A stretch of 64,000 bases of DNA. Origin: a virus (Duplodnaviria; Caudoviricetes). Location: the IMG/VR virus record IMGVR_UViG_641736227_000002. One strand, written 5' to 3'. The first letter of the stretch is position 1, and each line of letters opens with the position of its first letter. This document shows, in pieces, positions 38,116 through 39,922 of the stretch. The translations under genes and the position numbers were made by a program. The notes beneath the pieces were generated by a model that was not told where the DNA came from, ran no database searches, and saw only the letters and a list, made by a program, of their open reading frames with translations.

Positions 38116-38421
38116 TTAGTAGGTTTCAAATCTTATCTTGATATTTCCGTCATTTTCAGACCATTCCGCCCAAAAAATAAATTCTGTCCATTTGTCAGAT
38201 ACTTTCCCCTGCTGCCATTCCGTCTCAAATTCTTTGGCTTTCTCTTTTGGAATCAGCCATCCTCGCATATCTTCACATTCCAAATCAGGAGTCTCTAAGA
38301 TATTCCCTTCTCCACAGTCAGCAAAGAATACCTTGCCTTGGCTTTTTGCCTCCATCTGCACAAGCTCCCAGAACCTATTGAATTTATCGCTTTCTTGCGT
38401 TCTTAACCCTAACATTGTCAA
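38116..38421 (-). CDS. Putative immunity protein of MuF toxin
   Basis: Small acidic ORF overlapping the 3' end of toxin-bearing minor capsid; AAAGGAGG RBS. Confidence 0.65.
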   Translation of the reverse strand: MTMLGLRTQESDKFNRFWELVQMEAKSQGKVFFADCGEGNILETPDLECEDMRGWLIPKEKAKEFETEWQQGKVSDKWTEFIFWAEWSENDGNIKIRFETY

Positions 38422-39922
38422 TTCCTCCTTTCAGTATTGTGACAAATTCTCCACTTTCTTTTGCCACAACAACGTCTTTCCCTTTTATATAGAAGAAAGT
38501 CTCCCCTGCCTGACCTCTCCATTCTCCGCTTCTGACCTCACTGGCATTTTCAACAATGTCTAAAATCGTGTGCCGCATAGTCTGTCTGTCCTTGGTACTC
38601 TTAGGGTTCAGACCGTATTCTTTGGTATGTTTTCCAATCTTCTTTCCGAACTGTTTGTCTGATACCTTTATTATACTACTGTTTTCTACCTTTTGATACC
38701 GTTTGTTAGCCCATACAGCCTTCTGAGCCACGCTCCGATTGAATCCCACGATATTTCCACTACTGTCCAGAACTGCATGAACCTGAGTCCTTGCAGATTC
38801 TACCCGTCGGCCCGTCTGCTTACAAAATTCCTTGAGTTTCTTTTCCTGCCATTTGAGCCTCACCGATTCGGATTCAAAGCGCTGCTGCAAGGTATTTTTC
38901 AATACCTCGTCGTTTCCTGCTGCCTTGATCCCGGCATCGTATCCGGTCAGCTTTCGCTTTGTCCCTCTGATCTGTCTCTCCTGGAAACGCTGCATCTGTG
39001 AAACTTCATATTCTTTATATTTTTTACCTTTATACTCATATTTCTTCGTGTCATAGTCTTGAAGCATTGCATCTGTATATGCTCGCACAGACACGCCAGG
39101 AATAAAGACGTGAAAGTTATGCCTGCAATTCCATCCGCAAAGCCCCTCCCCTGTTCCATATCCGGTCATGGAAAATGGAGGGTAGTTAGGATCTTTCCCA
39201 GATATACAGAACACCAGCCCCTGCCAGAGTGCGTGCGATGGTCTGGCACCGCTATGCGCAGTTACTTCTACATAATCACAGCCCATTTCCTGCGCATATG
39301 CAAGCGTCATTTCTGCTGCCGACTGGTTCACGCCTGTCAATACGGCCCGTCTGACAGCCACATCCAGCTTATCTACATGACCGGATGGAAATAACACCTC
39401 CGTGCCTTGGCCTGCTGCCTCCTTTATTGCATCCGCTATGGCCTTATCGTAAGAAAATGCCCCTGTCTGCACCTTGAGCATGGCACTGTTGCATGCATTT
39501 ATGTAAGCGCTCTGAGCCTTATTTGCCGTTGTGAGAGTAAGATTCTTTATCTCTCCCTTGGTCTTTCTAAGATTGGCGTTTAGAATCTGCTGCATTTCCT
39601 TTGACTGGTGCAACTCCTTCGGTTCCATTCCAGCCATTTTGTAAATGACAGATTCATTTTTGATATTTTTAACCCCGGCCTCTTTAAATAGACGGTCTAT
39701 CTCCCGATCTATATATCCGGTTGTCTGTCCAATCCGTTTAATAGCGTCTTGATAGACCATTCCGGCGTTCTGCAGGACATGAGCCTGATGTTTTGCTGTG
39801 TCTGTGATGTGCTTTGTCTTTGCAATTCGGCGGGCAATGTCCCCGATAAGAGAGATCGACAGTTCATCTATTAAGGCTAGGAGTTGGTCACTGCATTTAT
39901 CCAGGTATTCGGGATCAAGCAT
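38384..39922 (-). CDS. Minor capsid (MuF) protein with C-terminal colicin-D-like toxin domain
   Basis: HSGARPSH..WQG, GLCGWNCRHNF; C-terminal KQFGKKIGKH..EYGL...VVVAKESGEFVTILK. Confidence 0.85.
   Translation of the reverse strand: MLDPEYLDKCSDQLLALIDELSISLIGDIARRIAKTKHITDTAKHQAHVLQNAGMVYQDAIKRIGQTTGYIDREIDRLFKEAGVKNIKNESVIYKMAGMEPKELHQSKEMQQILNANLRKTKGEIKNLTLTTANKAQSAYINACNSAMLKVQTGAFSYDKAIADAIKEAAGQGTEVLFPSGHVDKLDVAVRRAVLTGVNQSAAEMTLAYAQEMGCDYVEVTAHSGARPSHALWQGLVFCISGKDPNYPPFSMTGYGTGEGLCGWNCRHNFHVFIPGVSVRAYTDAMLQDYDTKKYEYKGKKYKEYEVSQMQRFQERQIRGTKRKLTGYDAGIKAAGNDEVLKNTLQQRFESESVRLKWQEKKLKEFCKQTGRRVESARTQVHAVLDSSGNIVGFNRSVAQKAVWANKRYQKVENSSIIKVSDKQFGKKIGKHTKEYGLNPKSTKDRQTMRHTILDIVENASEVRSGEWRGQAGETFFYIKGKDVVVAKESGEFVTILKGGIDNVRVKNARKR

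Follow-up and report, generated by a model that had tools for sequence, protein, structure and literature searches.

We describe here a pair of genes in the 64,000-nucleotide stretch of DNA (hereafter, the window) recorded as IMGVR_UViG_641736227_000002, in which a phage minor head protein of the MuF family ends in a domain resembling the tRNase domain of colicin D, and is followed by a small, overlapping gene. This locus probably encodes a MuF-family polymorphic toxin and its cognate immunity protein, carried by a temperate siphophage that is integrated in a Firmicutes chromosome. The window corresponds to positions 2,996,410-3,060,409 of a complete 3.59-Mb genome, in which the toxin domain and the immunity gene occur once each, and the named relatives of the carrier protein come from Anaerostipes and other Lachnospiraceae. 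The assignment draws on computed properties of the locus, namely the identities of its domains, the fold of the toxin domain, conserved active-site residues, the linkage of the toxin to the small gene and the swapping of cassettes. Both open reading frames (ORFs) lie where an earlier interpretation of the same DNA, made from its letters without database searches (the sequence-only reading), had placed them: 38384-39922 on the minus strand with 512 aa, and 38116-38421 on the minus strand with 101 aa when counted from a TTG codon.

The N-terminal part of the larger protein is the constant carrier. Residues 2-368 match the Pfam family Phage_min_cap2 (PF06152, MuF2) over 366 profile positions with an E-value of 7.8e-99, and the protein also matches the minor head proteins of PHROG 581 (E 1e-105). 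The gene lies directly downstream of the portal gene, within a phage head and packaging module, and such a portal-adjacent position is diagnostic of MuF genes (Jamet 2017, PMC5576092). Since the Pfam match ends at residue 368, the extension past the MuF domain amounts to 144 aa, which are made up of a linker of ~49 aa and a domain of ~95 aa (residues 418-512) that is basic, with a pI of 9.94. The sequence-only reading had put the extension at ~95 aa; this holds for the domain, which is as quoted there, but the full extension includes the linker. No colicin translocation or receptor-binding domain was found in the protein using Pfam, its N-terminal 368 aa being occupied by MuF2.

The resemblance of the C-terminal domain to colicin D, which the sequence-only reading had proposed, was recovered by several routes, and the colicin D strings quoted there agree with the colicin D sequence in the PDB as aligned. 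As a single sequence, the last 158 aa retrieved colicin D tRNase chains from the PDB with an E-value of 0.0023 (phmmer). A search limited to residues 400-512 found 139 proteins that share the C-terminal domain, and 33 of 34 representatives below 68% identity were aligned (alignment A1; one truncated row was left out). The A1 profile matched colicin D in the PDB with an E-value of 6.3e-8, and colicin D chains were its only matches below an E-value of 1. Colicin_D (PF11429) is also the only RNase-type Pfam family found for the toxin domain at E <= 10; one homologue (L020) passes the gathering cutoff of this family (29.2 versus 25 bits) and another (L036) reaches 20.7 bits.

Structure prediction is consistent with this assignment. 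An AlphaFold2 (AF2) model of the toxin domain, computed on the alignment (pLDDT 87.5, pTM 0.80), consists of helices at residues 9-22 and 30-45, four strands at residues 49-84 and a C-terminal helix at residues 91-98, in a predicted BECR fold. When the model was compared with the PDB using Foldseek, the top five matches were all colicin D tRNases (TM 0.61-0.65, 27-28% identity, probability 1.00), followed by colicin E5, CdiA-CT tRNases and RelE-type toxins. Superposition on colicin D with VIA-align gave Z-scores of 8.0-8.4, with root-mean-square deviations of 2.7-3.0 A over 90-91 residues, and the CdiA-CT and colicin E5 tRNases gave Z-scores of about 5.4-7.4.

In colicin D, residues K607, K608, H611, D614 and S677 are essential, and the wider Tox-ColD clade is marked by the motifs [KH]K, Hxx[ED] and [TS]xxK (Zhang 2012, Biol Direct, PMC3482391). 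The residues aligned with these five positions are K427, K428, H432, E435 and T495, and the three motifs occur at aligned positions as K427-K428, H432-T-K-E435 and T495-I-L-K498. The second lysine and the histidine of the active site are invariant across the 33 sequences of A1; in that alignment's numbering, the invariant positions are G13, K15, H19, R33, G53, D70, V71, V72, G87, N90, K94 and R97. From these comparisons we place the tip of the MuF protein in the Tox-ColD clade, as a divergent member that has kept its active-site residues and is a putative RNase.

The toxin domain is found at the end of other proteins as well. It ends RHS, TcdB_toxin_midN and PT-HINT proteins (L045, L048, L050 and L055), including proteins of Sorangium and of an Enterobacteriaceae metagenome-assembled genome (MAG). 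Further carriers that end in this domain contain Phage_min_cap2, Phage_Mu_F, VG15, or MuF2 combined with a metallopeptidase-like region, or contain nothing recognisable, and one more is a 1431-aa ORF with a weak ART-PolyVal match (L021). As a separate observation, a 215-aa ORF (L046:3677-4321) combines a ColD-like domain with a Ribonuclease domain of the barnase type (PF00545, E 2.4e-10), such that two RNase toxin domains are present within one small protein.

For the gene downstream of the toxin, the ATG at 38415 is a more plausible start than the TTG at 38421, because an AAGGAGG box sits 8 nt upstream of the ATG; the encoded protein then has 99 aa. As had been noticed in the sequence-only reading, this protein is acidic (pI 4.57, with 21 D+E versus 13 K+R), and its ORF overlaps the 3' end of the toxin gene, by 32 nt. 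Judged by sequence conservation, the small ORF is a real gene, whose family comprises 247 representative clusters when the cutoff is E <= 1e-3 and 127 when it is E <= 1e-10. The toxin profile retrieved 63 genomic loci, of which 62 contain the toxin domain; 54 of these 62 have an ORF of the small gene's family, which is adjacent on the same strand in 53 cases and in an overlapping frame in 50. In viral loci, an ORF of this family lies directly downstream of the toxin domain, and overlaps it, in 30 out of 30. The small ORF accompanies the toxin domain whatever the carrier, be it MuF2, MuF1, VG15 or a protein with no recognised domain. This linkage pattern agrees with the earlier suggestion of a downstream immunity gene, and supports the view that the small gene behaves as the cognate immunity gene, travelling with the toxin domain from carrier to carrier.

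Two further cases show unusual arrangements of the immunity family. In an Oscillospiraceae MAG (L043:3177-6736), three ColD-like toxin fragments occur with four immunity-family ORFs, one of which is on the opposite strand; this looks like the orphan-cassette or poly-immunity arrays of other polymorphic toxin loci. In a protein of 1868 aa (P0135), the immunity query (aa ~50-88) matches in 27 separate stretches, so this is a repeat protein of an immunity-like segment.

The MuF carrier itself shows that its C-terminal part is exchangeable. Relatives were collected by a search with residues 1-400. One of these (P0273) is 99% identical over residues 1-400, and yet is 556 aa long and has a different tail; window-by-window identities of 0.93-1.00 persist to about residue 390 and collapse after the string '...SVAQKAVW' (aa ~404-407). 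The best 120 N-terminal relatives, classed by motif and length rules as opposed to domain searches for each protein, divide into 8 with a ColD-like tail, 36 of ~587 aa with an ADP-ribosyltransferase tail, 29 with an HEvTH tail, 4 with an HERCH tail, 29 short proteins that stop where the junction lies, and 14 of other kinds. The ~587-aa class is represented by P0293, which matches the Pfam family ADPrib_exo_Tox (PF03496, E 4.6e-25). Polymorphic toxins are defined, at the level of sequence, by a carrier that stays constant, a junction that is fixed and toxin-immunity cassettes that can be exchanged, and the presence of swapped C-terminal cassettes on near-identical N-termini among these 120 relatives thus agrees with the polymorphic-toxin class named in the sequence-only reading.

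The junction can be located at 38699-38710 (aa ~404-407), where near-identical MuF2 carriers either switch tail or stop. It reads '...NRSV(A/S)QKAVW' followed by 'xNK', the latter being ANK in the protein of the window. By analogy, this MuF junction may be likened to the motifs that mark the pre-toxin junction in other polymorphic toxins.

The locus has a place among systems that are already described. A 'MuF phage-capsid-like' delivery mode was defined in the survey that also lists MuF among the carriers of Tox-ColD (Zhang 2012, PMC3482391), and MuF toxins, the MuF1-4 domains, the small ORFs downstream and the bias towards Firmicutes were defined later (Jamet 2017, BMC Biol, PMC5576092), in a paper whose main text does not name colicin D. 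Because Tox-ColD on MuF was listed in the former survey, the locus belongs to a catalogued class, within which it is expected, and existing knowledge is to that extent unchanged. With MuF polymorphic toxins in general it shares the MuF2 domain PF06152, the position after the portal gene, residence in a temperate Firmicutes phage, a C-terminal toxin that is found in other polymorphic families, an ORF of <150 aa downstream and swapped cassettes; it differs in that its immunity family is absent from Pfam. The MuF toxins with published experiments that we found are of the (p)ppApp synthetase type (PMC12226406, PMC10083569), and our literature search found no RNase-type MuF toxin with published experiments.

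With the colicin D tRNase (PDB 1v74, 1tfo, 1tfk and 5znm; PF11429), the tip shares the predicted BECR fold, profile homology, an aligned active site, a size of ~95 aa and a C-terminal position. However, the carrier is a phage head protein without receptor-binding or translocation domains, the host is Gram-positive, and the immunity protein, predicted to be of alpha+beta type, is not ImmD-like by sequence. The BECR tRNases of CdiA-CT and colicin E5 (PDB 8ey4, 5i4r and 2dfx) have the same fold class, a C-terminal tip and a downstream cognate immunity gene, but they show no significant profile similarity to the domain and are delivered by a type V secretion system or by colicin import. Finally, the PBECR domains, including Mu gp30 MuF-C, are also RNase-type BECR domains on MuF for which injection with the DNA was proposed, and also combine a histidine borne by the N-terminal helix with a serine or threonine in the last strand (PMC5512222). 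In contrast to the tip described here, the PBECR families are clades apart from colicin D, and the passages describing them mention no cognate immunity gene (PMC5512222).

From these observations we infer a scheme that combines an RNase activity and its substrate, packaging and ejection of the toxin, binding by the small protein and a benefit to the phage or the lysogen. The MuF2 domain would act as a minor head protein located at the portal. In the relatives SPP1 and 80alpha, MuF protein is present in the capsid in few copies and leaves it with the DNA. The tip would most likely be an anticodon-loop tRNase in which His432 acts as the general base, aided by Lys427/Lys428, Glu435 and Thr495. 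The 99-aa acidic protein would be the cognate immunity protein, whose gene overlaps that of the toxin and is probably coupled to it in translation, and which would inhibit the nuclease inside the producer, both during late expression and in lysogens. In an infected cell without the immunity gene, by contrast, the few injected copies of the toxin would cut tRNA and arrest translation.

Several points weigh against this interpretation. The toxin domain alone scores 14.7 bits (E 0.042) with Colicin_D, below the gathering cutoff of 25 bits, and we therefore call it colicin-D-like, i.e., part of a divergent Tox-ColD subfamily and not a strict member of the Pfam family. Its identity to colicin D is ~22-28%. 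The predicted fold alone indicates a BECR tRNase-type toxin and does not single out colicin D, because the best Z-score with CdiA-CT (7.4) is within ~1 of those with colicin D (8.0-8.4); it is the sequence profile that points to colicin D in particular. Sequence alone, in turn, does not give the substrate specificity. As to delivery, transport of MuF toxins by virions is presented as a hypothesis in both of the studies that discuss it here (PMC5576092 and PMC12226406).

Other such points concern the small gene, whose role as an immunity gene we derive from gene linkage. It is missing from 8 of the 62 genomic toxin loci, one of which is cut by a contig end and six of which contain a different family of ~165 aa instead. 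These six loci come from Sorangium (two), Polyangiaceae, Mycolicibacterium, Nocardia and the Enterobacteriaceae MAG (L045, L048, L050, L051, L055 and L060; the gene is at about 4250-4830 in most), and four of their six toxins are RHS, TcdB-midN or PT-HINT proteins. The ~165-aa family had no Pfam match, and a kinship with the 99-aa family was rejected (hhalign probability 0.1%); it probably represents another family of immunity proteins that serves the ColD-like toxin clade. For the 99-aa protein, searches of Pfam, the PDB and PHROG revealed neither ImmD nor another named immunity family as a relative. An assignment to ImmD or another named family was accordingly rejected, there being no Pfam match at E <= 10 and no NCBIfam or PHROG match. 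When 55 members of the family were searched against Pfam, no family was common to more than one member at E <= 1 and no Imm family was matched. Neither the single sequence nor a 55-member profile matched ImmD chains at E <= 10, with 1v74 and 1tfo being in the PDB bank, and nothing among the PDB sequences fell below an E-value of 0.07 with this profile.

An AF2 model of the small protein (pLDDT 96.3) has an alpha+beta structure. No Foldseek match of this model had a TM above 0.41, and its best VIA-align Z-score among 48,161 chains was 4.6, to cystatin/NTF2-like folds, a value that does not suffice for assigning a fold. Such weak structural matches, among which ImmD was not listed, indicate neither a novel fold nor that ImmD-likeness is excluded. 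The immunity proteins listed for Tox-ColD are ImmD and Imm64, the latter being an alpha+beta protein with DxEA and R motifs from Firmicutes, epsilon-proteobacteria and Euryarchaea (Zhang 2012, PMC3482391). The nearest clusters in the Atlas are all annotated as 'hypothetical protein' without Pfam domains (score 0.91, a lead only), and the nearest of them is most common in Campylobacterota. The predicted alpha+beta structure and the Campylobacterota range fit the description of Imm64, but alignment A2 of the small family has no clear DxEA. The immunity family is possibly a new element and, compared by published description, may or may not equal Imm64.

The last such point is the state of the prophage. 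The prophage that carries the toxin (hereafter, the toxin prophage) runs from a tyrosine integrase gene (59274-60578) through repressor, early, packaging and head genes to ~33511, and the last genes before it breaks off (33511-34685) encode a PHROG-4450 protein and a putative tail tube that includes an Ig domain. There follow an island with an LlaJI-type restriction-modification (R-M) system (27573-32913, GC 31-36%) and a second, complete prophage, which occupies positions 1-25600 of the window and extends leftwards to its own tape-measure, tail and lysis genes and two serine integrases (L066:4838-8196). Beyond this insert, ~57 kb away, lie a second tape-measure gene (1829 aa) and genes for Dit, a tail protein and an endolysin (L067:9545-19977), which presumably complete the toxin prophage. 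An insert of ~52 kb, made up of the second prophage and the R-M island, thus splits the toxin prophage between its tail-tube/chaperone region and the presumed tape measure, and its present ability to build virions is doubtful.

Even if the toxin is injected, it could be put to another use. The RNase might be an early effector that serves the phage itself, by shutting off the host or by cutting defence RNAs or tRNAs, with the small protein protecting the producer during assembly. The same has been proposed for BECR domains that are joined to those of MuF or portal proteins, under the heading 'polyvalent protein / PBECR' (Iyer 2017, PMC5512222). The place of the gene in the late structural module, with the protein being made while virions are built, and the relative of the domain that ends the 1431-aa ORF with the weak ART-PolyVal match would also suit such a role. 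However, the domain also ends RHS, TcdB and PT-HINT proteins, which are classical interbacterial toxins, and linked immunity, the poly-immunity arrays of L043 and the rapid swapping of cassettes are hallmarks of toxin-immunity conflict. Moreover, a tRNase that arrests translation would harm the incoming phage too. We consider an early effector unlikely as the primary role, although this role and that of a weapon are compatible with each other.

It is also conceivable that the tip is a dead or nucleic-acid-binding BECR module that is structural in the head, and that the small ORF encodes an accessory of head assembly. There are precedents in the inactive PBECR domain of the MuF protein of phage Mu (gp30 MuF-C; Iyer 2017, PMC5512222) and in the DNA binding of SPP1 gp7-type proteins (cited in PMC12226406), and no known immunity family can be recognised in the small ORF. 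Against this, the five positions that are essential in colicin D are kept, with the histidine and the second lysine invariant in 33 homologues. Furthermore, since short, tip-less MuF proteins exist among the close relatives (29 of the best 120), the tip appears dispensable for head assembly, and it is the toxin domain, rather than MuF, that the small ORF accompanies. A purely structural role for the tip is therefore very improbable.

Hardly more credible is the idea that the module is a relic, intact in sequence, stranded in a split prophage and serving at most as an addiction-like toxin-antitoxin cassette: the presumed tail and lysis genes do lie ~57 kb off, beyond the second prophage and the R-M island, but no ORF of the head module is disrupted, nor is that of the toxin or the immunity protein, excision of the insert could restore the operon or late genes could be expressed across the split, and the lineage looks active, because toxin domains that are 92-100% identical, each with an immunity-family ORF downstream, recur on five independent viral contigs (L068-L072).

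We therefore return to the polymorphic toxin with cognate immunity, and to what it might mean. Prophages of gut Firmicutes commonly carry MuF toxins, and our literature search found no demonstrated virion delivery. The locus is a clean RNase-type example, with a short and confidently modelled domain, an evident catalytic histidine and a linked, uncharacterised immunity family, and close relatives with other tails or with none provide natural controls for packaging, injection and immunity. A more far-reaching idea, to which we give only a modest chance, is that of a kin-discrimination cassette in phage heads, with exchange at a fixed junction, an immunity family of a new fold without solved counterpart, and, in a subset, a tip released inside the cell by Prp, the host's protease for ribosomal proteins. 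If this were true, near-identical phages would differ only in the toxin they inject and in the immunity that protects their lysogens.

The suggestion of Prp comes from relatives of the toxin. The motif '(N/D/E)LQ(F/Y/L)FASKEKQ' stands directly before the toxin domain in 11 of 119 homologues (P0043, P0046, P0050, P0051, P0059, P0070, P0072, P0073, P0079, P0088 and P0116), and in loci L033, L037 and L057. Prp also cuts the capsid and scaffold proteins of phage 80alpha between F and A (PMC5744158). An L27-type site of the form '(N/D)LQFF|ASK' at the domain boundary suggests that this host protease would release the toxin tip in a minority of relatives. The MuF protein of the window has 'ENSSIIKVSDKQ' at this place, and is without an L27/Prp-type motif. 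A full-text literature search found no paper linking Prp and MuF toxins.

The sequence-only reading had further supposed that tRNA or tRNA-like RNAs of the phage could serve as replacements or decoys for the toxin. The substrates of colicin D are tRNA-Arg. The only tRNA in the window is a tRNA-Ser(GCT) at 44501-44585 on the minus strand, which lies 4.6 kb upstream of the MuF gene, where the early region gives way to the packaging genes, and there are no other tRNA-like Rfam matches in the window. Of the 30 viral loci, inspected for 10 kb to each side of the toxin, 22 have no tRNA at all and none has a tRNA-Arg; the remaining 8 carry Ser(GCT) (in three), Met, Ile(TAT) (twice), Gln or one odd call. 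The tRNA-Ser(GCT) is confined to three close relatives (L068, L069 and L071), where it occupies the same relative place. These loci give no sign that replacement or decoy tRNAs accompany the toxin, and we rejected the idea for want of support.

The features of the locus and of the surrounding head module are listed in the table.

Table. Features of the toxin locus and neighbouring head and packaging genes (positions are those of the window)
Feature	Position	Strand	Basis
MuF2-ColD polymorphic toxin gene, 512 aa (stop codon 38384-38386 included)	38384..39922	-	ORF list
MuF2 / Phage_min_cap2 domain, constant carrier part, aa 2-368	38819..39919	-	Pfam PF06152
Linker, aa 369-417, holds the cassette junction	38672..38818	-	Pairwise identity profiles (P0273, P0274, P0293, others)
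Colicin-D-like, putative BECR RNase domain, aa 418-512	38387..38671	-	PDB profile search, AF2, Foldseek, VIA
Candidate immunity gene, 99 aa, ATG start	38116..38415	-	ORF list, conservation, linkage
Shine-Dalgarno-like AAGGAGG for the immunity gene, within the toxin coding sequence	38424..38430	-	Read from sequence
SPP1 Gp6-like portal protein gene, next to the MuF gene on its upstream side	39933..41510	-	Pfam SPP1_portal, E 4e-12
Small terminase gene terS	42579-43409		Gene order of head/packaging module
Large terminase gene terL	41329-42594		Gene order of head/packaging module
68-aa ORF between immunity and scaffold genes	37852..38058	-	Weak coiled-coil-type sub-threshold Pfam/NCBIfam matches; PHROG 36405, E 0.0034
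Scaffolding protein gene	37057..37698	-	Pfam Phage_scaffold, E 1.2e-45
Major capsid protein gene	36164..37042	-	PHROG 544 major head protein, E 1.3e-80; Pfam Phage_capsid_4

According to Pfam and PHROG, the order of genes is terS, terL, portal, MuF, small ORF, 68-aa ORF, scaffold, major capsid and head-tail connectors. A megablast search of 37000-43500 against a phage collection gave no match, and a scan of 37000-40200 found no excess of promoters (6 versus 5.9 in shuffled sequences) or terminators (3 versus 2.6). Directly upstream of the scaffold gene, at 37699-37763 on the minus strand, is a GP20-b RNA motif (Rfam RF03003, 48.5 bits), which is preceded by a terminator-like hairpin at 37785-37805. 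Elsewhere in the toxin prophage there are two conflict-type genes: one for a macro-domain protein (43427-44026, minus strand), which adjoins the gene of the small terminase, and another that resembles Abi_2 abortive-infection genes (58195-59163, plus strand), which adjoins the integrase gene.

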